This document shows, one piece after another, positions 5,438 to 20,373 of a stretch of 64,000 bases of DNA; within the stretch, counting starts at the first letter, position 1, and each line of letters begins with the position of its first letter. The translations under genes and the position numbers were made by a program. The notes beneath the pieces are model-generated. The model was given only the letters and a program-made list of their open reading frames with translations. It was not told where the DNA came from and ran no database searches. This DNA is from an uncultured Candidatus Saccharibacteria bacterium (GTDB lineage: Bacteria > Patescibacteriota > Minisyncoccia > Phycocordibacterales > SIBU01), in the NCBI GenBank assembly GCA_964430335.1, contig CAYSEN010000001.1, positions 1,653 through 65,652 on the forward strand, in the 5' to 3' direction.

Positions 5438-6154
5438 TTACACGCTCAATATAAATCTCTCAAGACGACTAATAAAATCCACCTCCCCTCTGTGGGCATC
5501 GTGATAAATTGAAACCAGCTCTTGCGCAAATTTACTCAAATCATTATCACTAAAATTTTTCGCATATCTAAGCGCCTTGTTAAAAACAAAAGGGTTTAAA
5601 CCAGATTCGGTAGCGTTTTTAGTTTCTGATGAAATAATCATATTTTTAATCTGCCAAAACAAAATTCCAGAAATTTCCTCTGGTGTGGCCCCACTTCTTA
5701 TGGCTTTCTCATAAATTACCCAGAGTTTTTTCCTATTTCTTTCTCCTAAGGCATCGGCCAAAGCAAAGGTGTTAAATGGTTCAACTTTTTTTTCTTCTTT
5801 ACCCTCGAAGGACTGCACCTTATCGGCAAATTTACCGACCGCATCTAGAGTTTTTTTATCAACAACCTCGTTTATAAAAATAAATACGTTTTCTGAATTT
5901 TTTAGCAAATCCAGCTTTTCAATCACAAAATCTTTAATTTCCTTATTCTCAAAAATCCTGCTAGCAAGAACTATAAATTTTCTTTCAAAAAGCCCCTGTG
6001 AACCAAGAAATTCCTCAAACCTTCCTTCGCTCCAATTGTCCTGGTCAATCTTAAAAAGCTCGGCATCTGGTTTTCTTTTCTGCATAACCGAAACCAGTTC
6101 AAGCGCCTTCGCCCTAGCTGCGTCCATATTTTTTCCGTAAAGAAAATAAAGCAT
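5438..6154 (-). CDS. holA: DNA polymerase III delta subunit-like (HolA-like, short)
   Basis: N-terminus MLYFLYGKN resembles the delta-subunit start. All-helical C-terminus. Lies immediately downstream of polA. Tentative. Confidence 0.45.
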   Translation of the reverse strand: MLYFLYGKNMDAARAKALELVSVMQKRKPDAELFKIDQDNWSEGRFEEFLGSQGLFERKFIVLASRIFENKEIKDFVIEKLDLLKNSENVFIFINEVVDKKTLDAVGKFADKVQSFEGKEEKKVEPFNTFALADALGERNRKKLWVIYEKAIRSGATPEEISGILFWQIKNMIISSETKNATESGLNPFVFNKALRYAKNFSDNDLSKFAQELVSIYHDAHRGEVDFISRLERFILSV

Positions 6155-8691: not shown

Positions 8692-9159
8692 CTATAGAGT
8701 TATTTTTCTCGTCTGGTCGTCAACAAATTCAAAATTCATTTTTATAGTATCGTCGGGCAATACATCGGCGACTAAATCTGCCCACTCAATCAAAATTAGA
8801 TTTTTAGGATTTTTTAAAATATTATCGATTCCCAATTTTCTCAATTCATCACCACCCTTCAAACGATAAGCGTCGATGTGTATCAAAGTGTCAAAACGAG
8901 AGTATGAAATTTTGTAAAATTTCATTATGACAAAAGTCGGGCTAGTGATTTGTTCTTTCACGCCAAAGGCCTCCGCTACATATTGCACAAAAGTGGTCTT
9001 ACCAGCGCCCAAATTTCCCACAAGGCCGACAACAGTGGCGCCACTTCTTTCACTTTCTACAATGATCTCACGTAAGGCCTCAACTGCCCCCTTGGTCTCT
9101 TCTAAACTTTTACTGAAAATATCCATAAGCGAAATTGTAGCATATACATTTTTTCCCAA
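8692..9159 (-). CDS. tsaE: tRNA threonylcarbamoyladenosine biosynthesis protein TsaE
   Basis: P-loop VGNLGAGKTTFV. Size and architecture of YjeE/TsaE. Confidence 0.8.
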   Translation of the reverse strand: MGKNVYATISLMDIFSKSLEETKGAVEALREIIVESERSGATVVGLVGNLGAGKTTFVQYVAEAFGVKEQITSPTFVIMKFYKISYSRFDTLIHIDAYRLKGGDELRKLGIDNILKNPKNLILIEWADLVADVLPDDTIKMNFEFVDDQTRKITL

Positions 9160-9213
9160 AAGAAAAAGGCACTTCGATAATCTCGAAGTGCCCGCGTAAA
9201 TTTTGAAGTTGGC

Positions 9214-9789
9214 TTATGGGCCAACTCGGTACCGCCTGATGGGCCCGGGACCATTGAGGTCCCGGATCTCCCGGATTCCTCCGGGAGATCCCCAGTAACG
9301 GTACCCTCCAGGGGGCGTGGGTGGTTCCCAACTGTATCCAGGAACCGTACCACCCTGTGGAAGCACGACCGGGACAGCTGGTGGTGTCATGACAACACCT
9401 TGAGGTGGCTGGGACCAAACCTGCCCTGGAGGAGGCGTGGCCCAGCTTCGCTGGGGACCAAAATTGAACTGTCCGTTCGATCCTGCTTGCGCCTGCTGTG
9501 CAGACGCAAGCCCGTTGGTGCGAGCGTACTCATGCTCACGACGCTCGTACTCCATCTTCACCATCGCCTCCTCGTGTCGGAGGCGTGCCTCCTGCAGTGA
9601 CCGGACATGCCGGTCGTATTGCTTGCCGCCATTTTCTAGCACCCTCTGTTCGGGCTCTTGCCCAAACTGATAGGGGCCCTGTCCACGAACGGCGCGGACG
9701 TGCTCGACCCGTGGGGTCGACGAACAACCGGCGAGAAGTACGGCCATTGTGGCGACGATGACCGAACCGATGAATTTAAAGGTCTTCAT
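9214..9789 (-). CDS. proline-rich lipoprotein encoded in a high-GC (about 60%) gene
   Basis: Signal peptide plus lipobox LLAGCSS. Pro/Gly/Gln-rich C-terminus. Composition is sharply different from the flanks. A hairpin ggcacttcg-ataatc-tcgaagtgcc lies 3' at 9166-9190. Confidence 0.5.
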   Translation of the reverse strand: MKTFKFIGSVIVATMAVLLAGCSSTPRVEHVRAVRGQGPYQFGQEPEQRVLENGGKQYDRHVRSLQEARLRHEEAMVKMEYERREHEYARTNGLASAQQAQAGSNGQFNFGPQRSWATPPPGQVWSQPPQGVVMTPPAVPVVLPQGGTVPGYSWEPPTPPGGYRYWGSPGGIREIRDLNGPGPIRRYRVGP

Positions 9790-9973
9790 AACACAGAATT
9801 TCTGTAATGGAGCATTTTGCTCCGGGTTGAATTGCAGGCGGATTTGCCTAATATAATAATAGCATTATTTGTGCTAAATGTCAATACATAGTTGGGCTCT
9901 AATCGCCTTGTTTTCCAACATTTTTTAGCCTTTTCCATTTGTGTAAAGATATAAAAAAAGCTAAAATCTTTGC

Positions 9974-11650
9974 ATGGTAATTCAATTTGACGAGGACAAA
10001 CAAAATCAAAAACTCGACACTCTCCGAAAAAAAGAAGAAGAAGACTTCGCAAAGGACACCGCTGAAAGACTTGGACTTGAATACATAAACCTAATTCTTG
10101 TACCCATAAACACCGAGGCACTAAAATTGGTGCCCGAGCAACAAGCCAGACAGGCGAAAATTGCCCCTTTTAACATTGTCGGAAAAAAAGTTCAGGTTGC
10201 AGTCTCCTCCCCCGAATCAAGCGCTACAGCAGAGGTTTTAGAATCACTATCGAAAAGCGGTTACAGCTTGATCGTGTTTGTAACAACTCACGAAAGCCTA
10301 GAAAAAGCTTGGGGCTACTACAAAGATCTTTCATACTCAACAGAATCGACCGCAGGAGCGCTCGACGTTTCAAGTGATGAAATCGGTCAGTTTCTATCTA
10401 AGGTACACTCCATTAAAGATATTGGTACCCTCATTGAAGATATACTTGCTCAGAAAAAAAGTTACAGAATCTCTCGCTTGATTGAGATCGTCCTTGCCGG
10501 AGCAATAGCAACACACGCTTCGGATATTCACATAGAACCAGAAGAAGGTTACGCAAGGCTCCGCTACAGACTTGATGGGGTTTTAAACGATGTTCTCAAA
10601 TTTGATAAGGAGACTTTTGACTTAGCCCTATCTAGAATCAAATTGCTTTCTGGTCTAAAGCTAAATGTTAAATCTGAAGCTCAGGACGGAAGATTTAGTG
10701 TAAAAATAAACGGTGATGATATTGAAATAAGAACCTCCCTGCTCCCAGGAGCTTACAGCGAATCAGTGGTAATGAGAATTCTTAACCCTAAATCGATCAA
10801 TGTGCCGATCGAATCGCTCGGCATTAACCCAAAACTTTTGGAAATTTTGCTACATGAAATTAGTAAACCTCACGGTATGATTCTCACCACAGGTCCTACA
10901 GGTAGCGGTAAAACTACAACGCTCTACGCTTTCCTTAAAAAAATTCACACTCCAGACATAAAGATTATTACGATTGAAGATCCTATCGAGTATCACTTAC
11001 CAGGAATTGTGCAAACTCAAACAAATTCTGAGAAGGGGTACACTTTCCTAGAAGGATTACGTAGCGCGCTTCGACAAGACCCAGACGTGATCATGGTTGG
11101 TGAAATCAGAGACAGCGAAACAGCTGAAATCGCAGTGAACGCCGCCGAAACAGGACACTTAGTGTTCTCTACTCTTCACACTAATACTGCAGCTGGTACA
11201 TTCCCACGCCTCGTAGACCTCGGAGTGAATCCAAAAACCATGGCCTCAGCAATCAATGTATCGATGGCTCAAAGATTGGTAAGAACCCTGTGCAAGGATT
11301 GTAAAAAAGAAGTTGCGATTACCGGAAAAGAAAAAACTCTGATTGATAACATCGTCGCCTCCCTTCCAGATCAAAGCGAAGTTACAAACACTGAAAAAAT
11401 GTGGGTTGAAAATGGTTGTGACAAATGCAATCACACAGGTTTTAAAGGAAGAGTCGGAATATATGAGGCAATTTTAATGAATGAAGTAATAGAAACCGTA
11501 GTAAGAGAAAATCCTAGTGAAAGAGAAATTCAAAAAGCTGCTCTACCACAAAAAATTCCGACAATGAAACAGGATGGAATCATAAAAGTCCTAAACGGTA
11601 CGACTTCCTTAGGAGAATTATCAAGAATAGTCGACCTAGAAAAAGAATAA
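9974..11650 (+). CDS. pilB: type IV pilus/type II secretion assembly ATPase (GspE/PilB family)
   Basis: Walker A GPTGSGKTTT. A GspE N-terminal-like domain. Tetracysteine CKDC...CDKC. Confidence 0.85.
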   Translation: MVIQFDEDKQNQKLDTLRKKEEEDFAKDTAERLGLEYINLILVPINTEALKLVPEQQARQAKIAPFNIVGKKVQVAVSSPESSATAEVLESLSKSGYSLIVFVTTHESLEKAWGYYKDLSYSTESTAGALDVSSDEIGQFLSKVHSIKDIGTLIEDILAQKKSYRISRLIEIVLAGAIATHASDIHIEPEEGYARLRYRLDGVLNDVLKFDKETFDLALSRIKLLSGLKLNVKSEAQDGRFSVKINGDDIEIRTSLLPGAYSESVVMRILNPKSINVPIESLGINPKLLEILLHEISKPHGMILTTGPTGSGKTTTLYAFLKKIHTPDIKIITIEDPIEYHLPGIVQTQTNSEKGYTFLEGLRSALRQDPDVIMVGEIRDSETAEIAVNAAETGHLVFSTLHTNTAAGTFPRLVDLGVNPKTMASAINVSMAQRLVRTLCKDCKKEVAITGKEKTLIDNIVASLPDQSEVTNTEKMWVENGCDKCNHTGFKGRVGIYEAILMNEVIETVVRENPSEREIQKAALPQKIPTMKQDGIIKVLNGTTSLGELSRIVDLEKE

Positions 11651-12078: not shown

Positions 12079-13158
12079 ATGTCAAGAAAGTCTAACACAA
12101 AACGAGCAGAAAATGACTCCGAAGAAAACAACACACCTGATGAAAAAACCATAAAAGACAAGGTTTTTTCGGACGATGAAGGTTTTTTAGATCAAACTCT
12201 AAGACCAAGTCATTGGGACGAATATATCGGTCAAAAAAATATTAAGGAGAATTTGAGGATTCTTTTGACCGCTGCCGCTGAAAGAAAACACCCGCCGGAG
12301 CATCTTTTGTTTTACGGCCCTCCAGGATTGGGAAAAACTACCCTCGCCCACCTCATTGCCAAGGAAATTGGTGCACAAATCAAGATAACTTCAGGACCTG
12401 CCATTGAAAAAGTTGGAGATTTAGCATCCGTACTTACAAATTTGTCACCAGGAGACATTCTTTTTATCGATGAAATTCACCGTCTCAACAAAGCTATCGA
12501 GGAAGTGCTATATCCAGCAATGGAATCTGGTCAGCTCGACATCATAATCGGCAAAGGTCCATCAGCCCGCACAATCCAACTTGAACTTCCTCCTTTTACT
12601 CTAATCGCCGCAACTACACGCATCGCACTTCTCTCTTCCCCGCTACGATCACGCTTTGGCGGAGGAGTTTTCAGACTCGAATTTTATTCTGATGAAGAAA
12701 TAGAGGAAATTGTAAAAAGATCTGCAAAAATTTTAGGAGTGGCGGTAGAAAAAACCGCCTCGCAAGAAATTGCCAAGAGAAGTCGTTTCACTCCAAGAAC
12801 TGCAAACTATCTTTTAAAACGAGCCCGAGATTTTGCTCAGGTGAACAAAGGTGATCTTACAAAAGAGATCGTTGATAAATCACTAGCACTGCTCGGAATC
12901 GATGAGCTTGGACTTGGGCACTCAGACAGAGCGCTTCTAAATACACTTATAGAAAAATTTAACGGTGGCCCTGTTGGACTAAACACTTTAGCAGCAGCTC
13001 TTTCTGAGGAGCAAGCAACCATAGAAGAAGTTCATGAACCCTACCTTCTCCAACTTGGCCTGATCGAACGCACACCGAGAGGACGTGTCGCATCCGAAAA
13101 AGCATATCGTCATCTCAAAATCTCCGTTCCAAAAAATCTTCAAGAAAAGCTCCTGTAA
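12079..13158 (+). CDS. ruvB: Holliday junction helicase RuvB (with roughly 45-aa acidic N-terminal extension)
   Basis: GPPGLGKTTLA Walker A, DEIHRL sensor, and RuvB C-terminal winged helix. Confidence 0.9.
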   Translation: MSRKSNTKRAENDSEENNTPDEKTIKDKVFSDDEGFLDQTLRPSHWDEYIGQKNIKENLRILLTAAAERKHPPEHLLFYGPPGLGKTTLAHLIAKEIGAQIKITSGPAIEKVGDLASVLTNLSPGDILFIDEIHRLNKAIEEVLYPAMESGQLDIIIGKGPSARTIQLELPPFTLIAATTRIALLSSPLRSRFGGGVFRLEFYSDEEIEEIVKRSAKILGVAVEKTASQEIAKRSRFTPRTANYLLKRARDFAQVNKGDLTKEIVDKSLALLGIDELGLGHSDRALLNTLIEKFNGGPVGLNTLAAALSEEQATIEEVHEPYLLQLGLIERTPRGRVASEKAYRHLKISVPKNLQEKLL

Positions 13159-13177
13159 AACAGCCAAAATAAAAGCC

Positions 13178-13212
13178 GCCGCGACAAGGTCGCGGCGGCT
13201 TTTATTTTTGTG
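13178..13212 (+). terminator. rho-independent terminator after ruvB
   Basis: aaaagccgccgcgacc-aaggtcgcggcggcttttattttt. Confidence 0.8.
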
Positions 13213-13482
13213 TGCCGAAGAGAGAGATTGCGATCCAAAAAGGTTGAACCTTTTTGGATCTAAACACACATTTCACTCTGCATTTTGTGGGCTTGTGACC
13301 AGCATCAATCTCAAAGTTAAATATTTAGAATGATGGCTGCATTAAAATGTGGAGAATTTTCATCCAGCACAAATCACTTTGTGATGGATTAACCCTAAAT
13401 CGAAACTTGAGATTCTCCCGAACTCACGCTTCTCTTAACCTTCGCGGACTTTTATAAGGAGGTCCGCACCCCGTGAAATAGA

Positions 13483-13791
13483 TCAACCGCCTTGGCTGAC
13501 CCATCGCTTGGCGGCATCAAGAGCCTCTCCAGCGTTCTCGAAACAGACAATGTCCGTTTCGTTGTGCCAGAACTTAATCTGGTCTGTGGCGTTCGCCAGC
13601 GCATCCAGCACCTCGGCGTCCGTCACTATTTTTCGAGTCGGGTGTAAACCCCGACCGAAGAAGCGTTCGAAACAACCTTCGGAACCTCGAACGCCTGAAA
13701 TCTGGAATGTTCGGTCACCAACCTTCCATTCCAGAGATTTCCGATTCCCCTCCACCCAAATGCGGAGGAGGGCTAGTTGTGTGGTGTTCAT
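13483..13791 (-). CDS. hypothetical protein (high-GC island)
   Basis: ORF in a high-GC region. No family recognised. Confidence 0.35.
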   Translation of the reverse strand: MNTTQLALLRIWVEGNRKSLEWKVGDRTFQISGVRGSEGCFERFFGRGLHPTRKIVTDAEVLDALANATDQIKFWHNETDIVCFENAGEALDAAKRWVSQGG

Positions 13792-13816
13792 AATGAACAG
13801 GGTGTGGGGTAAAGCC

Positions 13817-14197
13817 CTACACCAACGAGATCAGACAGACCTCTTTTTCCGTCATGTCACCCATACACCCGTAAGGGCAGTGGCCCTTTGGGGTGACATC
13901 GTAATCGTAGGAGATTCCAATGTTGCCGCAAATGCAGCAGCCTCCTCCTGGGACCCACCACACACCGGCGATGGGTTGAAAAACTCCCGTAGGAGTCAGA
14001 TAGGCCAGGAGTCCTTCGGATTCCTGGCCGCTATAGACAAGACGCTTTTTTGCAGCGTCTAGCACGGGGACACACTCTTCCCCCTGTGTTACTGAGCCGT
14101 CGGCCCAGTAACAGACGTAGCGAGGAATCTCGTTCCTCGCCTGAAGAGAACGAAGCAATGCTTCGATCTCTTTTTTTGATTTTGTTGAACTACTCAT
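13817..14197 (-). CDS. hypothetical Cys-rich protein (high-GC island)
   Basis: Cys cluster GGGCCICGN...HCPYGC. No family recognised. Confidence 0.35.
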   Translation of the reverse strand: MSSSTKSKKEIEALLRSLQARNEIPRYVCYWADGSVTQGEECVPVLDAAKKRLVYSGQESEGLLAYLTPTGVFQPIAGVWWVPGGGCCICGNIGISYDYDVTPKGHCPYGCMGDMTEKEVCLISLV

Positions 14198-14285
14198 AGA
14201 ATTTCATTTTCGAAAAATCAAAAACAAAATTCTATGAGTAGTGCTGAATACTGTCTTTAGATTTACCAACGTTTTGATAAACCCA

Positions 14286-14321
14286 ATAAACAGGAGAAGT
14301 TGTAACCGCAACTTCTCCAAA
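14286..14321. repeat. hairpin direct repeat copy 1 (ataaacaggagaagttgtaaccgcaacttctccaaa)
   Basis: 10-bp perfect stem ggagaagttg/caacttctcc. Near-identical copy at 16058-16093. The flanks (tgataa... and ...cgacaattt) are also shared. Confidence 0.75.
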
Positions 14322-14481
14322 CCTAACGACAATTTTTTCTCGGGATAGTCGTCCTTCCCATGACACTGCATGTCAGGCCACACCATTTAGAACGGTGGCA
14401 ACTTTCCAGCATTTTTCATGCCGGACTTTTACGCACTTCTGTTACGAAGGTGGTGCGATCCTTCGGATGTCTTTCCATCAG

Positions 14482-14805
14482 TCAGAGAGTGACGCGGATA
14501 GCCACAACCTCGTCGTCCGCACTGCATTTGAATATACCAAGTACCTGTTCAAGGCCGTTTGTGCGACGTTGAAAGTCTTGGTCATCATTTGCATTGTGAC
14601 GATTGGTGGCATTTTCATGCGCAGTCTTCGGGAAAAAACAAACGCAATAAACGCTGTCGTTCCAAAAACCTGAACATGAATCCTCATCACTCTCTCCCTC
14701 CAAAATCGCTTCTGGCACATAAGTGAAATCAAATGTACCGAAGGTATTTCGAGCAATCTTTATTGCCCGAATGATCTCAGAGGGATTAAGGCTAACTTCC
14801 TTCAT
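14482..14805 (-). CDS. hypothetical protein (107 aa from MKEV start)
   Basis: Strong SD GGGAGGAG upstream of the ATG (MKEVSLNP). The ORF-track N-terminal extension is probably not translated. Confidence 0.4.
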   Translation of the reverse strand: MKEVSLNPSEIIRAIKIARNTFGTFDFTYVPEAILEGESDEDSCSGFWNDSVYCVCFFPKTAHENATNRHNANDDQDFQRRTNGLEQVLGIFKCSADDEVVAIRVTL

Positions 14806-14923
14806 GGAAGCTCTCCTCCCACTTTTTTCACTGAAGTGGCAAACCGTCGAATGCAGTTCCGCCAAACAGCTCACGTTTTACGATAGGCAGTGAGGGCCTT
14901 TGAGAGACTGACGGTCTCTCAAA

Positions 14924-15853
14924 CTACTTGAGGTACTTCGTGAGCACCTCAACCACCCGCTCGACTGAAAGGGTCGAGCTGACACCCTGAGGGCTTCCGC
15001 CGATGGTCGGGGAACCTCCCCAACCCGGCTCGAGGGTCGCCAACTCGGCGAGCGCGGACTTGATGTCCGCGTACTTGCTGGCCTCGAAGGCGCAGATCGT
15101 GAACTTCCGGTGGGGCTCTCCCGCCCCGAGCCGAAAGCTCGGGTTGAGCGCCACCACGACCGGCGCCAGCGCATAGCCAACCGACGTGGCGGCGCGGTGC
15201 GTCGACTCGACGACCGCAATGCACCCGCCGGCACAAACCTCGTGCCGAATCGCTCCGCTCTCAAGAGCGGCGATCATGTCGGCGCGCTCGCGCTCAACCT
15301 GAGCGCGATAGTTGCCCGGCTCCTCGCCGGTCAACAACCACTTTTCCATAGTGGCGACCCGCTCCCCGAGTGGGATCTTGAAGTCCGCAACCGCCGCCGC
15401 AATCGCGGCGAGCGGTCGGGACGATTCGGCCCCTGCCGAGCTATCGTCCCACGGGCTGCCCCGGGTCGGGAGGGGTTTCGGGCCGGTGTACCCGCCACGT
15501 GCGAACTTGTCGGCGGCGGCAACCATACTGATCCGATCCATCGCGGACTCGAGACCTTCGCCCTTCGCCCGGATGTTGAAGATCGCCATCGCCCCAACAC
15601 TGTCGAGGTCGGCTCGCACAGTGACCAATGTCGCCCTCTCGGCCGGGATCTCTACCGTCAGCGCGGCCTCGATGGCCGAGCTGTTGGCGTCTCCTTCCGA
15701 TCCGTGCTGGGGGTCGAGGTTGTACACGCACCGAGCCGCAAGGCTCGGGACGGTCACCTCGATTCCGAACACCTGCCCGGACGAGAAAACCTTCTCGTTC
15801 GCCTCAGAGGCGGCCGGAAGATTGCGGGGATCCAGAATTGCAAAATGAAACAT
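14924..15853 (-). CDS. hypothetical protein (309 aa, about 65% GC) with C-terminal Gly-rich motif GWGGSPTIGGSPQG
   Basis: ATG (MFHFAILDP) preceded by AGGTGA. Many overlapping ORFs here are high-GC artefacts. No confident family. Confidence 0.45.
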   Translation of the reverse strand: MFHFAILDPRNLPAASEANEKVFSSGQVFGIEVTVPSLAARCVYNLDPQHGSEGDANSSAIEAALTVEIPAERATLVTVRADLDSVGAMAIFNIRAKGEGLESAMDRISMVAAADKFARGGYTGPKPLPTRGSPWDDSSAGAESSRPLAAIAAAVADFKIPLGERVATMEKWLLTGEEPGNYRAQVERERADMIAALESGAIRHEVCAGGCIAVVESTHRAATSVGYALAPVVVALNPSFRLGAGEPHRKFTICAFEASKYADIKSALAELATLEPGWGGSPTIGGSPQGVSSTLSVERVVEVLTKYLK

Positions 15854-16057
15854 TTTGTAATTCACCTATCTTCAAACAAAAGCAAAAAAATGTGACTATT
15901 TTGGTACACACTTATTTTGTTCTCACAAAACGCGGGTTTCTAAGTCGCGAATTGTGCCTGAATCGGATTTGTCGACAAGTGAGCGGGGGTCTAGACTGTC
16001 CCCATTCACCTGTCGAAACCAATTCGTGTCTACAGACTGGCAAAATTTGTCAGCCTG

Positions 16058-16093
16058 ATAAACAGGAGAAGTTGTAACCACAACTTCTCCAAA
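16058..16093. repeat. hairpin direct repeat copy 2 (ataaacaggagaagttgtaaccacaacttctccaaa)
   Basis: See copy 1. There is one loop substitution (g to a). Confidence 0.75.
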
Positions 16094-16158
16094 ACCCGTG
16101 CGACAATTTATCCATTTTGTGGAATAGGAAGTCGCCCTTCCTTTGTTGTTGGTCTGGA

Positions 16159-16557
16159 CTAGCGATATGTTGCATCTTTCCAGACTGTAAAACTACGACC
16201 TTCCGCGGTCGTAGTTTCGATGATCTGGTGACCGGGAGCTTCCCCGGTCTCAGCCAGAACCTCCTCATCCAGGCATTCCATCCTGGATGAAAGAGTGGTC
16301 AGCCGGAGATTCCCGGCCACGGCGAGTTTCTCGAACTCGCCGTTCATCTCGCGCAACTGCGCGAGACAGTAAGCCAGATGTTCTGGCGCATCTTCGACGC
16401 CTGTAGCATCGACCGATATCTCCGGACCGCACAGGCAGTCCGGAGATGTCTCATTCAGAAAGAGCAACTGCCCCCTCCGAACGAACCACAATTTCATTTT
16501 CATAAAATTGTAAAAAGGATGGTACCGCCAGCCAACATGGCCAGCGAACAAATACAA
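16159..16557 (-). CDS. hypothetical protein (island)
   Basis: ORF track. AGAGGG-like SD before the first ATG. Confidence 0.3.
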   Translation of the reverse strand: MYLFAGHVGWRYHPFYNFMKMKLWFVRRGQLLFLNETSPDCLCGPEISVDATGVEDAPEHLAYCLAQLREMNGEFEKLAVAGNLRLTTLSSRMECLDEEVLAETGEAPGHQIIETTTAEGRSFTVWKDATYR

Positions 16558-17189
16558 TCCCTCTTTCCGGCACTAAGTAAATCTAACGCCGGAGAAGAGG
16601 AATAACATTGCGGTTATTGCTTTGGCAAAATTTGTTCCGCCTTACTCCTTCCTCTCTATTTAGTTTTCAAATTACTTCCCTACTCTACCTATCACTTTCC
16701 GCAACTCGCGGACTTCCTGGTGTAAGGACATTTTGAAGTACAAAGTGGGTTAGACTTTACACTTCATCGATGTCCTGACGAGCCTTCTCGTCGACAACGG
16801 GCGATGAGTTTACCTTAAAGGTATATCTCCGTCATTTGGAATGGGTTTCGAAGCCAGACCATATGTAGAGCACTCATCATTCGAAACGAGATATTCAAAA
16901 GGCTGCCTCTCTCCCCACTCTCTCTTCTTTCCATACTTAGCCGCTTTCGCGGAGGCTATGGGACCTTCCCTTTCGGGCTAGAGGTGGGGGGCAATCTTTC
17001 GGCTATCTCCTGAACGAACTTGACTTTCTGGCAATAGAATATCTTAATTAGATAGCGAGTGTCAATTATTTATGACATAAAATGGCCGGTTATTGCAAAA
17101 TCTAGTAACAACATGGATTTTATGGCTTATCCACATATTACTATTGTCATATACTTGTGACAAAAACAGCTTTATGCTAGACTAAAAGT

Positions 17190-17996
17190 ATGGAAAATTC
17201 ATCATACGAAAAATTTTTAAGCGAGTTGGGCCTAACAAAAGAACAATCTTCCGTGTATGAAAGCCTTCTAAAAAACGGCCTTTTGCCGGCTAGACTTGTT
17301 TCCTTAAAAACAGGAATAAAGCGCAGCTTGGCCTATAAGATAATTGAACAGCTGATTGCCCTAGGTTTGGTTGAAAAAAGGGAAAATATTGGCAAAGTCA
17401 CTCTGTTCTTCCCTACCCATCCCGGAAAACTTCGTGAATTGGTCCAGAGACGCGAGGAGGAGCTGAAAAAGGCGGAGGCTAGCCTCGGTGGAATTATGGG
17501 CAAAATGGTTTCGGATTTTAATTTACTTTCAGGAAAGCCAAATGTTCAATTCTATGAAGGAATGGACGGTATGAAAAAAGTTCTTGAAGACTCTTTGACT
17601 GCGGAGGGTGAGATTTTGGCTTACTCAGATATTGTGGCGATACAAAAATACATACCCGAAGTAAATGCTGACTACGTTGCGAAAAGAAGAAAATTTGGTG
17701 TTAAGAAAAAAGGTTTGATATTTGATTCTCCAGAAGCTAGAAAAATACTAGAGGGTTACAATCCTGACATTACTGAAAACAAATTCATTAAATTTAAAGC
17801 TGATCCTTCAAAAACAATTATGCAGATATATGACAACAAGATTTCATATATCACTCTTAGTGAAAATCAAATGATAGGCGTTATTGTGGAGGACAAACAA
17901 ATCGCTTCACTGCACAGAAACCTATACGAGTATCTTTGGAATACTATTCCGCAAGACGGCTCATCTGCGTCGGTCGCGAAAAAGTTTGAAGATTAG
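17190..17996 (+). CDS. TrmB-family transcriptional regulator (N-terminal winged HTH plus C-terminal domain)
   Basis: N-terminus LTKEQSSVYESLLKNGLLPARLVSLKTGIKRSLAYKIIEQLIALGLV is wHTH-like. Size is typical of TrmB. Confidence 0.5.
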   Translation: MENSSYEKFLSELGLTKEQSSVYESLLKNGLLPARLVSLKTGIKRSLAYKIIEQLIALGLVEKRENIGKVTLFFPTHPGKLRELVQRREEELKKAEASLGGIMGKMVSDFNLLSGKPNVQFYEGMDGMKKVLEDSLTAEGEILAYSDIVAIQKYIPEVNADYVAKRRKFGVKKKGLIFDSPEARKILEGYNPDITENKFIKFKADPSKTIMQIYDNKISYITLSENQMIGVIVEDKQIASLHRNLYEYLWNTIPQDGSSASVAKKFED

Positions 17997-20373
17997 CTTC
18001 GTCAATTTTCTCAAATACAAGAAGCACCGTGTCGGCCTTTTTGTCCCTGATGTATCTTGTTAAAACATTTCTCTTCCCTCCCTCCTTTTGGTTTAGAGGA
18101 GAAAATGCTTCAGGAGTTAGTTCGGACAGTCTCAATTCAACACACTCAAAAGGCAAAGTTCCGGATTCTTTTTTCTGTTTAATTTCTTCGGCGGTCATTG
18201 ATTTAGAGGAGAAAAGACCGACACTTTGGTCATTTCTCACAATATCCATCGAGTATATTTCGTGGACCTGTTCTGCTCCCGTTCCTACGAAACCTCTCTC
18301 TACGTAATTCGAGGCAATTGCCTCGGTAGCAGTACAGCTGGCTTCGATTACAGAGTCTTTGGCCACAACGTCGAGTGATTTCTGCATCAAAGCCTCCCCG
18401 ATACCAGAACCACGATATCTTGGATTCATGTTGAAAGCGCCGAAGTATGTAGTATCAGACTCAGTAATGCCAAGTCGATAAAAACCTTCAATGACTCCTT
18501 CGTATCTTAGAATGTAAAATCGATTTGCAGGGTCTCTTACAACAGAGTCAAATCGCTCGATAAGCATTTTTTGGAATTTTGGGTATAGGATGTAATTAAT
18601 TTTATACAGCTCTTTCATTCGGTCGACGTCTGCCGGCGACAGCTCCCCACCACTAACTTCACTTTCGAAACTAACCCCTTTGATTTCTGAAAAATCAGGA
18701 GTCTCGCCGTTTTGAGAAAATTCTCTAAATGATGCGGCGAAGAGTGAGGCATCTGCACGAGTGAGCTCAAGTTCTTTTTCGAGTTCTTCCGCTGTAACAG
18801 TTTCAGCTCCCGCAGAATTTAATCTGGTGGCGAATCCTGAGAGCAAATCCCTTCCTCGACGCATCAAATTGTCTTGAATAGATGAAATTGTGGCCTCGTT
18901 GGCATCTTTGCCGTAGTGTTCTCGAACATAGGAACCAGCGGATTCGGCAGCGTCGACTAGCTCAGAATATTTGATAAAAATTCTTTCAGCCTGGTCCTGT
19001 GGCAATTTTTCACCAAGTTCAACAATACTGTCACCAAATTCACGGCCATATTCTAGAGAAAGGAACGTGCGAAAGCCGGTTTTTCCGTATCTGGAAACAA
19101 AATTTTGTACAGGTGGAATATGCTTCGCTTCTTTTGTTTTTATAAAATTTAGAAACTGAAATTGTTCGGACAATGACATTTCTGAAATTTTTATTCCGAA
19201 ATCTTTCTCCACTCTTTCACGTGTTGGTTTTCGTAATAGATACGCATAACTGGCCAAGTCTTCTTCATTGGCTTCACCAAACACTGCCAAATCCTCAACG
19301 CGCGCCACCCTCATTGTTGAATAAATTTCAGAATAAAGTGAACTTCTTTCTTGCATTAATGGATAGCCCATAGAAATTTGCCCACTTTTTCTCAAAATTT
19401 TATCTATATCCTCACTTAATTCAGAAATTCTACCCACAAGATCCTCTAGTTTTTTACGGTCAGATGGTTCACTTATATACAAAACATCATCTAGATGAAA
19501 TGCGTAGCGATCGCCAGTTATTAAAACCGGCAGATGGTCCTGATCAGAACCCCAGTCTCCATTTTCCATCGCAGAATATACTTCTTTGGCTCTTACATTT
19601 AACAAATAACTACCTTGTTGTTTTTCTACTGCTTCGTTGAGCAATTGTCGAAGACGAGGAGCCTCTTTTTCTGAAAAACTTGTGTCTGCAGAAATAAAAT
19701 AAAGTCGTTTTAAAAATTCGATAAAATTTGCGGTTTTGGAATAATTATCTGGATTTTTAAAATCGAGATTCCTTTCTATTGCACTGTCATAAGCACCGCC
19801 TGAAAACGCATGTAAATATTGGAGTGAGCTCATTAGGTCCTGTCTAAGAAATTTACTTGCTCCATATCTTCCTACCGCCTGAGCAGTTTCATCGATTAAA
19901 ATGTCGGGTCTAACAAAGTGATTTTGTCCAAAAATGTTTTCTATTGCACCTGCGCCGTTTGGATATTTTTCATAGAGTTTCAGATTGGCACGAAACGCCT
20001 TATCACCAATAGACTCATCGTTTGGATTTAGCCTAGTTAAATCTGTATTTATCATTAAACCTTGGGTAATTTTCACAACCATATCGAAATCTATTTTTCC
20101 ACCCTCGCTAGATCTTTCTAAGGTCTGTAAATTTCTTTCAACGAGCAAATCGACCGACTCTTGTGACAGTTGGTGCCTTTGAGGAACTTGTGGCAAAACA
20201 CTCATTAATCCCTCCAGTTCCTCATCAGTTAAATTTTGTATGGTTTCGTTTATTTTTTCCTCATCTTTGCTTTCGATAAGAGAAATCAAATTCCTAGGCA
20301 ACTCAACACCCTCTCCTGTTCTGTCAGGAATTTCTCTACCAGAAGCCTCTTCCAAAAAATTTTCATGTGCCAT
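17944..20373 (-). CDS. large (809 aa) cytoplasmic protein with C-terminal GNAT acetyltransferase-like domain
   Basis: GNAT core NMNPRYRGSGIGEALMQ ... VERGFV near residues 620-700. The N-terminal 600 aa is of unknown family. Confidence 0.55.
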   Translation of the reverse strand: MAHENFLEEASGREIPDRTGEGVELPRNLISLIESKDEEKINETIQNLTDEELEGLMSVLPQVPQRHQLSQESVDLLVERNLQTLERSSEGGKIDFDMVVKITQGLMINTDLTRLNPNDESIGDKAFRANLKLYEKYPNGAGAIENIFGQNHFVRPDILIDETAQAVGRYGASKFLRQDLMSSLQYLHAFSGGAYDSAIERNLDFKNPDNYSKTANFIEFLKRLYFISADTSFSEKEAPRLRQLLNEAVEKQQGSYLLNVRAKEVYSAMENGDWGSDQDHLPVLITGDRYAFHLDDVLYISEPSDRKKLEDLVGRISELSEDIDKILRKSGQISMGYPLMQERSSLYSEIYSTMRVARVEDLAVFGEANEEDLASYAYLLRKPTRERVEKDFGIKISEMSLSEQFQFLNFIKTKEAKHIPPVQNFVSRYGKTGFRTFLSLEYGREFGDSIVELGEKLPQDQAERIFIKYSELVDAAESAGSYVREHYGKDANEATISSIQDNLMRRGRDLLSGFATRLNSAGAETVTAEELEKELELTRADASLFAASFREFSQNGETPDFSEIKGVSFESEVSGGELSPADVDRMKELYKINYILYPKFQKMLIERFDSVVRDPANRFYILRYEGVIEGFYRLGITESDTTYFGAFNMNPRYRGSGIGEALMQKSLDVVAKDSVIEASCTATEAIASNYVERGFVGTGAEQVHEIYSMDIVRNDQSVGLFSSKSMTAEEIKQKKESGTLPFECVELRLSELTPEAFSPLNQKEGGKRNVLTRYIRDKKADTVLLVFEKIDEANLQTFSRPTQMSRLAE

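Follow-up and report, generated by a model that had tools for sequence, protein, structure and literature searches.

The window analysed here, 64 kb of contig CAYSEN010000001.1 from an uncultured Candidatus Saccharibacteria bacterium (assembly GCA_964430335.1), contains on its minus strand an array of genes in which two intergenic gaps carry a structured three-helix element (copy 1, 14256-14365; copy 2, 16031-16148). The element belongs to an undescribed family of structured elements that fold on the gene-sense strand and are restricted to arrays of this kind, as revealed by comparison of the window with contigs of the same species or of relatives (L020 to L043). The reading favoured here, to which a probability of roughly 0.55 is given, is that the element is a structured RNA which punctuates a variable gene-cassette array in a clade of Parcubacteria, by attenuation and/or by processing.

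A three-helix element of the array gaps

The initial annotation described two copies of a hairpin-containing direct repeat of about 55 nt, 1.77 kb apart, which bracket the core of a GC island (a region rich in guanine and cytosine). The direct repeat is real: 36 nt are identical at 35 positions between 14286-14321 and 16058-16093 (start-to-start distance, 1772), the stem GGAGAAGTTG/CAACTTCTCC is perfect over 10 bp (in copy 2, 11 bp), the shared flanks (tgataa and cgacaattt) are present, and each hairpin is followed on the minus strand by the T-rich sequence TGTTTAT. The hairpin pattern occurs twice in the 64 kb compared with an expectation of 0.00 (100 shuffles), and the looser pattern GGAGAA-N8-24-TTCTCC is found in the same two places only. 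The repeats enclose minus-strand open reading frames (ORFs) of 107 aa (14482-14805) and 309 aa (14924-15853), the latter being the regional GC peak (65%, compared with 40% for the window). The length of about 55 nt is, however, too short: the minus-strand alignment of the two copies also takes in a small hairpin (GGAAGG..CTTCC) on the upstream side, the string AAATTGTCG and, downstream, another hairpin, giving a homologous unit of 110-118 nt, and weaker similarity may extend to the 3' end of the upstream gene. As both loops carry G in 99% identical strains, the G/A difference between the loops in the window is a recent change.

The annotated hairpin thus corresponds to H2, the central hairpin of a larger element whose length is about 110-150 nt across the family. 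In copy 2, between the 114-aa and 309-aa genes, H1 lies at 16126-16142, H2 at 16065-16090, the U-rich tail at 16058-16064 and H3 at 16033-16057; in copy 1, between the 107-aa and 126-aa genes, the same parts lie at 14343-14359, 14293-14318, 14286-14292 and 14258-14285, respectively (all minus strand; positions taken from the alignment rows). A covariance model (R1) was built from a seed of ten elements aligned with MAFFT and folded with RNAalifold, and a second model (R2) from 21 matches. Copy 2 scores 102.6 bits (R1) and 100.2 bits (R2), copy 1 scores 93.1 and 85.5 bits, and the antisense strands score 12.2 and 11.5 bits, respectively. With filters off, R2 finds exactly two copies in the array of the window.

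Homologues with compensatory changes in the inner stem are present in seven other loci (L028, L033, L035, L036, L038, L042 and L043). In L028, whose RuvB is 86% identical to that of the window, the gap hairpins keep the base of the stem and the loop, differ in the inner stem (GGAGAAACTTTT-AACC-AAAAGTTTCTCC and GGAGAAGCAAA-ACCC-TTTGCTTCTCC) and have flanking strings in common with the window. Because orthologous copies in relatives have other inner-stem sequences, the near-identity of the repeat core is local to this species. What is conserved in H2 is the base GGAGAA/UUCUCC, with UUCUCC on the 3' strand, whereas the inner stem is variable; outside the paired regions, the GGGUU linker, the H2 loop (GGUU), the U-rich tail and the UA at the end, with G next to it, are conserved.

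RNAalifold analysis of the ten elements gives the three helices H1, H2 and H3, with compensatory changes in 21 of 25 pairs. In the alignment of 21 sequences, 86.7% of the cells form standard pairs, a value somewhat inflated by the fitting of that alignment to the model, compared with 45-50% when the partners are slid by 1-3 columns. Changes on both sides are seen in all 25 pairs, and the covariation score is 0.661 compared with about 0.19 for the slid controls, the observed values being reached by none of 500 shuffles. The slid controls and the independent MAFFT seed agree with the structure despite the model-fitted alignment. G-U/U-G cells (72) outnumber A-C/C-A cells (26), indicating that it is the gene-sense strand that folds; one position in H3 is G-U in 12 of the 21 sequences. 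In addition, the H1 loop and a linker might form a pseudoknot, for which 67.6% of cells are paired and double changes occur in four of five pairs (examples are GCGAC/GUCGC, GCGAU/AUCGC and AUGACU/AGUCAU); this pairing is tentative.

The covariance models were run on the fetched loci (R1, 253 kb; R2, 290 kb). R1 gives about 30 matches, all in intergenic gaps of arrays and all but the two weakest on the minus strand; R1 and R2 together give about 25 copies above 26 bits in seven related loci of the 290 kb, all on the sense strand and all within arrays. R2 gives no copy in the remaining 60 kb of the window, nor in L031, a locus without an array, nor in the sequences that flank the arrays of relatives. 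In Rfam 15, cmscan gave no relevant match to the element over 13100-17250 at E<=1 or over 15950-16200 (251 nt) at E<=10, the families not matched including DUF1874, pistol, hatchet, twister-sister, hammerhead and Drum. Public genome, metagenome and viral contig collections were scanned by exact hairpin pattern only (GGAGAAGTTG-N6-CAACTTCTCC), and gave unrelated single hairpins with flanks unlike those of the window; of five such loci, R2 gives three 21-24 bits and two no score. Patterns of the linker plus H2 in viral contigs gave chance matches (12 bits with the covariance model, or none). The arrays compared come from one clade within Parcubacteria.

This distribution bears on whether the hairpins are selfish repeats that landed twice by chance, of the type of repetitive extragenic palindromic (REP) sequences, bacterial interspersed mosaic elements (BIMEs) or miniature inverted-repeat transposable elements (MITEs); REP/MITE-like elements had been considered in the initial annotation. 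The element is indeed a short palindromic repeat in intergenic DNA, but the 64 kb holds two copies only, both in the array, the relatives' copies all lie within arrays and on one strand, and the hairpin-pattern scans of the public collections gave unrelated hairpins only. Also, neither the two-copy nor the family alignment contains terminal inverted repeats, and no target duplications are seen. Chance landing of a mobile repeat is therefore hardly credible.

Within the gaps, the 3' end of the element is usually 35-72 nt upstream of the next start codon, and the 5' end ranges from overlap with the preceding stop codon to about 390 nt past it. The copies that precede genes of the 309-aa family in the window, L036 and L043 are mutual nearest relatives, which suggests that, at least for this cassette, the element travels with the downstream gene. 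An L035 copy groups with these 309-aa-associated copies, its downstream gene being cut off at the contig end; for copies associated with the NDK gene, the picture is mixed.

Possible attenuation, termination or processing

We infer that the array is transcribed as one unit from a promoter at its leader and that the element acts on this transcript by attenuation or processing. The array transcript would start at a conserved promoter followed by a leader of about 400 nt, beside a divergent gene for a TrmB-like regulator, proceed through three to about eight GC-rich, horizontally shuffled cassettes, and end in a twister ribozyme just ahead of the ruvB terminator. Each element would fold in this transcript as H1, the GGGUU linker, H2, the U-rich tail and H3 ending in UA|G, with possible pairing between the H1 loop and the linker downstream of it. 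In this scheme, transcription would be attenuated or ended by H2 with its tail, the complete fold would mark where the RNA is processed, or both; each cassette would thereby be insulated and obtain defined mRNA ends.

Several features of H2 are those of an intrinsic terminator. The stem is 10-12 bp, and the folding energy is -14.1 and -15.3 kcal/mol in the window and -13.7 kcal/mol as the median of 21 members. The window tails, UGUUUAUU and UGUUUAUC, contain 5-6 U in 8 nt, with interruptions, and the family tail has a median of 5 U in 8 nt (21 members). In a simple scan for terminators, both copies in the window score as positive on the minus strand. As H2 and the tail satisfy a lenient definition of a terminator across the family, some terminator or attenuator activity of the element is plausible from its sequence.

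It is a different matter whether the copies are plain reiterated terminators, that is, a hairpin duplicated after two genes, with the remaining similarity being debris of the duplication and devoid of further function. Reiterated terminators had been proposed in the initial annotation, and this holds in so far as both hairpins pass the minus-strand scan and H2 and its U-rich tail are kept across the family; even the possible extension of similarity into the 3' end of the upstream gene would be expected from a segmental duplication. However, species whose proteins are only 70-86% identical have kept H1, H3 and the linkers, with compensatory changes, the element is absent after all other genes of the window, and it keeps a more constant distance to the following start codon than to the stop codon before it. 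Also, the ordinary terminator of this genome is different, having a GC-rich 20-bp stem and a clean U run. A generic terminator is thus insufficient as an explanation because H2 sits in a covarying three-helix element whose copies are limited to one kind of array, and the plain terminator reading is considered distinctly unlikely.

The array is framed by further features. A sigma-70-like promoter (TTGACA, 17060-17065) and a non-coding leader of about 400 nt occupy 16620-17065 on the minus strand, as indicated by a promoter scan and an alignment of seven species; the minus-strand promoter consensus TTGACA-17-TAYTAT and operator-like boxes between the leader and the TrmB-like gene are conserved in this alignment. 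The array genes are co-oriented behind this promoter, and a weak promoter-like site follows copy 1. The leader contains no ORF and has no Rfam match, and its RNAalifold consensus has 73 pairs, 18 of them compensatory, making it a candidate for a large structured leader or non-coding RNA that heads the array. The TrmB-like gene (17190-17996, plus strand; Pfam PF01978, E=2.3e-11), which encodes a helix-turn-helix regulator and is divergent from the array promoter, keeps its position in L028, L035, L036, L038, L042 and L043. In the leader, an invariant hairpin loop, GUCUAACCC, is located at 16716-16724 (minus strand); the loop CUAACCC is complementary to the GGGUU(A) linker of the element and to the GGUU(A) loop of H2. 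This complementarity is short and, alone, is not statistically meaningful.

At the other end of the array, a candidate Twister-P1 ribozyme is located at 13270-13348 on the minus strand, between the last array gene and the ruvB terminator (Rfam RF03160, full-length; E=1.7e-9 and 50.5 bits, the latter below the gathering score of 67.2). Twister is also found in L042 (E=0.004) and, weakly, in L036 (E=0.14); its core strings are kept in both and are seen by eye in L028. The 102-aa family adjoins twister wherever twister has been located (the window, L028, L036 and L042), and L043 also has a member of the family. The tail that follows twister (13209-13269, minus strand) consists of GUGUGUUUA, a perfect hairpin of 13-14 bp (13232-13260) and then GCAAUCUCUCUCUUCGGCACACA; its outer strings are kept in L036 and L028, and the inner hairpin differs. 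Beyond it lies a strong bidirectional intrinsic terminator (13166-13208; a perfect inverted repeat of 20 bp, flanked on either side by T runs, -32.6 kcal/mol), which is common to ruvB and the array. A second ribozyme type occurs in L042, in which the one long gap without the element (5575-5913) contains a type III hammerhead (5743-5797, minus strand) with the canonical CUGAUGA ... GAAA core (Rfam E=4.2e-5, below the gathering score).

In this setting, the polycistronic array RNA might be cut at each cassette boundary by the element itself, as a self-cleaving ribozyme of a new class, or by a dedicated endoribonuclease that targets the element. The element shares its niche with known ribozymes, with twister at the array end and the hammerhead in the element-free gap of L042, and its multi-helix fold, possible pseudoknot, conserved junction nucleotides and sharp 3' boundary UA|G would suit such a function. 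Intergenic searches near such ribozymes have been productive before: a search near twister and hammerhead ribozymes by Weinberg et al. in 2015 reportedly gave twister-sister, pistol and hatchet. Of the RNA motifs detected close to ribozymes, many reportedly showed no cleavage when assayed. In a later study, which lists these three among the ribozymes found by this approach, no cleavage is reported for other motif candidates, and the same argument of terminator versus ribozyme is made for other motifs (Weinberg et al., 2017; NAR 45:10811; PMC5737381). For the present element, no known ribozyme family in Rfam 15 matches, and the terminator-like H2 fits poorly with self-cleavage, so that a ribozyme or endoribonuclease target is given only a small probability.

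Three further readings of parts of the element were tried and rejected. For the plus-strand string CUGAUAA...AAAA as a hammerhead, the core positions are wrong by eye and there is no Rfam match; for a promoter hidden in H3, no -35/-10 pair is consistent across members; and for a short ORF with its start in H2, the two copies differ in reading frame.

The punctuation of the array by a structured RNA is thus preferred, and the following points weigh against it. The U tract is interrupted (UGUUUAU), which may lower the strength of termination, and H3 sits 3' of this tract, in a place where no terminator or riboswitch model needs it. The hammerhead in place of the element is a single case. The pairing counts come from the model-fitted alignment, and support for the pseudoknot is only moderate. 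The search for copies in this genome spans 64 kb. Moreover, the shuffling of cassettes suits a role at the DNA level equally well.

Cassette genes and variation of the locus

The array of the window contains five genes, all on the minus strand. The 114-aa (or 112-aa) gene (16159-16503) is the first cassette after the leader, the 309-aa and 107-aa genes form the enclosed cassette as its first and second genes, the latter also being called as a gene in public contigs, and the 126-aa (13817-14197) and 102-aa (13483-13791) genes form the last. The 114-aa and 126-aa genes rest on ORFs and gene calls, and the 102-aa protein has BLASTP matches of 50-59% identity in L028, L036, L042 and L043. None of the five proteins has a match in Pfam, PHROG or NCBIfam.

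The 309-aa protein is predicted to have the two-domain fold of DHH and DHHA1, and thus to be a DHH/DHHA1-like phosphoesterase. Its family comprises 714 cluster representatives, and its AlphaFold2 (AF2) model has a predicted local distance difference test score (pLDDT) of 94.8. The best Foldseek matches in the PDB are PAP phosphatase, RecJ2, DhhP and NanoRNase A; DHH/DHHA1 phosphoesterases are the top 8 and 14 of the 17 top matches, the other three being the C-terminal domain of alanyl-tRNA synthetase (probability 0.54-1.0; E=3e-4 to 3e-3 for the top 8; low template modelling scores (TM-scores) of about 0.3). Sequence and profile searches of the PDB gave no match to this protein, as in Pfam. 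Csx3 occurs as a domain fused to one homologue (P0262) and, on its own, as the first cassette of L038; the related arrays carry Csx3, HD_4, NDK, DEAD helicase and MoxR/VWA genes.

Additional palindromes are present in the array. A long imperfect hairpin, TCGACAGGTGAATGGGGAC...GACCCCCGCTCACTTGTCGA (15967-16017, minus strand), is located in the 5' untranslated region (UTR) of the 309-aa gene, and has counterparts with altered stem bases in L028 (13829-13875; BLAST match over 13825-13875 at 84%, inverted repeat I5), in which it precedes a different gene, and in L043 (about 5910-5960). The start codon of the 126-aa gene lies within an inverted repeat at 14189-14242 (25-nt arms, 88% complementary), which might occlude translation initiation there. 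In the same region, a 19-nt string (14200-14218) resembles the start region of the 114-aa gene (16490-16508; 89%).

The array lies between ruvB (12079-13158, plus strand) and the TrmB-like gene, which is followed by a gene for an 809-aa protein with a GNAT domain; homologues of this protein are too few for a useful structure prediction. RuvB homologues place the genome in Patescibacteria/Parcubacteria, near Taylorbacteria. In the more distant relatives L031 and L032, yebC and ruvC directly follow ruvB, indicating that the array, TrmB-like and GNAT block is an insertion at the ruvB junction. The junction between ruvB and yebC-ruvC (13158-20373 in the window) is a hot spot for insertions: nothing is inserted in L031 and L032, two to five small minus-strand genes are present in L029 and L033, and the window, L028, L042 and L043 have the full array together with the TrmB-like and GNAT genes. 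The L035, L036 and L038 contigs show the TrmB-GNAT-yebC side and contain no ruvB. Further loci, fetched by means of the TrmB-like protein, have the same layout, that is, the TrmB-like gene, 0.7-1.1 kb of non-coding sequence and then a run of mostly unannotated minus-strand genes, six to 11 where the contig covers it, which reaches ruvB in L042 and L043.

Cassettes differ in content and order between these loci. The corresponding region of L028 contains six other minus-strand genes. The 309-aa family is present in the window, L036 and L043 at different ranks, and the adjacent 266-aa and 155-aa families have the opposite order in L028 to that in L036 and L043. The NDK cassette is 90% identical between L028 and L042, and the TrmB-like proteins are about 70-77% identical to that of the window. 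Array genes mostly have 52-65% GC in all species, compared with 40-51% for the whole loci. The GC content of the window rises locally a second time at 9001-10000 (51%, compared with about 40%), upstream of the T2SSE ATPase gene, where a 193-aa minus-strand gene that has no Pfam match is located. In relatives, leaders and gaps contain insertions of small MITE-like palindromes, the ends of which resemble CCCAGCACTAAC...GTTAGTGCTGGG (L035, about 1250-1350; L036, 1468-1509, 6171-6209 and 8300-8420; L043, an insertion in the leader); the window has none of these.

Within the species, the array varies, and none of the variants is an exact deletion of the repeat-bounded segment. Same-species contigs (99-100% identical) that cross both copies all contain the 1.77-kb segment, and a strain lacking exactly this segment, which the initial annotation had suggested looking for, is not seen among the contigs compared. 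L024 diverges at window position 13533 into AT-rich genes (31-38% GC; L024 4136-5306) with no element copies, L021 at 14183 (L021 8262-8438) and L023 at 14494 (L023 6101-6144), which is 129 nt beyond copy 1; the flanks of these three are about 99% identical, and their alternative sequences have no match in the other fetched loci. Three other contigs, L020, L022 and L025, stop within copy 1 (window 14315-14321). With k=31, as used in Logan assemblies, a de Bruijn graph breaks at exact repeats of at least 31 nt. As the copies contain such an exact repeat, these ends are read as assembly breaks and not as variation.

The shuffling of cassettes raises the question of whether the element is a recombination site, acting as single-stranded DNA in the manner of integron attC for excision, insertion and shuffling of cassettes. 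The cassettes are co-oriented behind a single conserved promoter, a structured element stands at nearly every boundary, cassette order differs between species, gene content varies between strains of about 99% identity, and the GC content of the cassettes is foreign to the host. However, precomputed Pfam matches of neighbouring genes in the window strain and six relatives include no tyrosine or other recombinase domain within about 10 kb on either side of any locus, and the conserved proteins adjacent to the array head have TrmB and GNAT domains only. The fold is also unlike attC, in which a single long imperfect hairpin bears R and L boxes; the element has three separate hairpins, and the R-box consensus (RYYYAAC ... 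GTTRRRY) was not seen at its ends when the sequence was read by eye. Attachment sites of the attC type recombine as the bottom strand, whereas the G-U pairs of the element favour the sense strand. The strain breakpoints (13533, 14183 and 14494) are not at elements. Because no integrase is found in these neighbourhoods, the fold is not that of attC and the wrong strand folds, an attC-like DNA site is considered quite improbable. Of the suggestion in the initial annotation that the repeats are recombination sites delimiting a cassette, the delimitation stands, as the elements are at cassette boundaries and the cassettes are shuffled between species; recombination at the sites would be a conjecture from sequence, and the strain variants break elsewhere.

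A bolder combination of these features is that the element, the leader and the twister and hammerhead ribozymes constitute an RNA-based counterpart of the integron, in which exchangeable cassettes would be driven by a promoter in candidate-phyla-radiation hosts and cassette boundaries would be set by a new catalytic or leader-guided RNA module, such as a new class of self-cleaving ribozyme or a terminator controlled by kissing loops. That the element itself might be catalytic or guided by the leader is entertained because twister and hammerhead ribozymes co-occur with it; this proposal is speculative and regarded as unlikely.

Relation to known systems

If the favoured reading is true, the element would be a new and well-supported class of structured RNA, with strong covariation and no Rfam match, from candidate-phyla-radiation bacteria, in which gene regulation is almost unexplored. 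The regulator, leader, element-separated cassettes and ribozyme would constitute a conserved genomic device that collects GC-rich foreign genes, several of which encode nucleotide or oligonucleotide hydrolases (DHH-like, Csx3, HD and NDK). Such a device would provide a setting in which to address two questions, the purpose of twister and hammerhead ribozymes in bacteria and the means by which cassette arrays exist without an integrase.

With intrinsic terminators, H2 shares a stable hairpin, a U-rich tail and a location downstream of a gene. Unlike them, it is flanked by two conserved helices and linkers, its U tract is interrupted, the sequences of its stem base and loop are conserved across species, and it is found in one kind of array only. 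Like motifs found near twister and hammerhead ribozymes, the element is intergenic in clusters that carry those ribozymes, but it matches none of twister-sister, pistol and hatchet, and its own self-cleavage is only putative.

Integron arrays resemble this array in that co-oriented cassettes stand behind one conserved promoter, cassette order is shuffled and composition is foreign. Like attC, the element is located at cassette boundaries and has conserved outer parts and a variable inner stem. The array differs from an integron in that it has no integron integrase, that the element lacks the form of one imperfect hairpin bearing R and L boxes, and that the sense strand folds. An attC site associates with the ORF upstream, whereas the element associates with the downstream gene, as seen for the 309-aa family.

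The closest described analogue is the DUF1874 RNA motif, for which the authors were undecided between a role as RNA and an attC-like role as single-stranded DNA (Weinberg et al., 2017). Like the element, this motif has multiple stems, occurs in consecutive intergenic regions (motif, ORF, motif, ORF) usually as potential 5' UTRs, and has no integrase heading the run. The present element differs in having no Rfam 15 match, in its three hairpins with a terminator-like central hairpin, and in its setting, which combines a leader, twister and hammerhead ribozymes and Parcubacteria as hosts.

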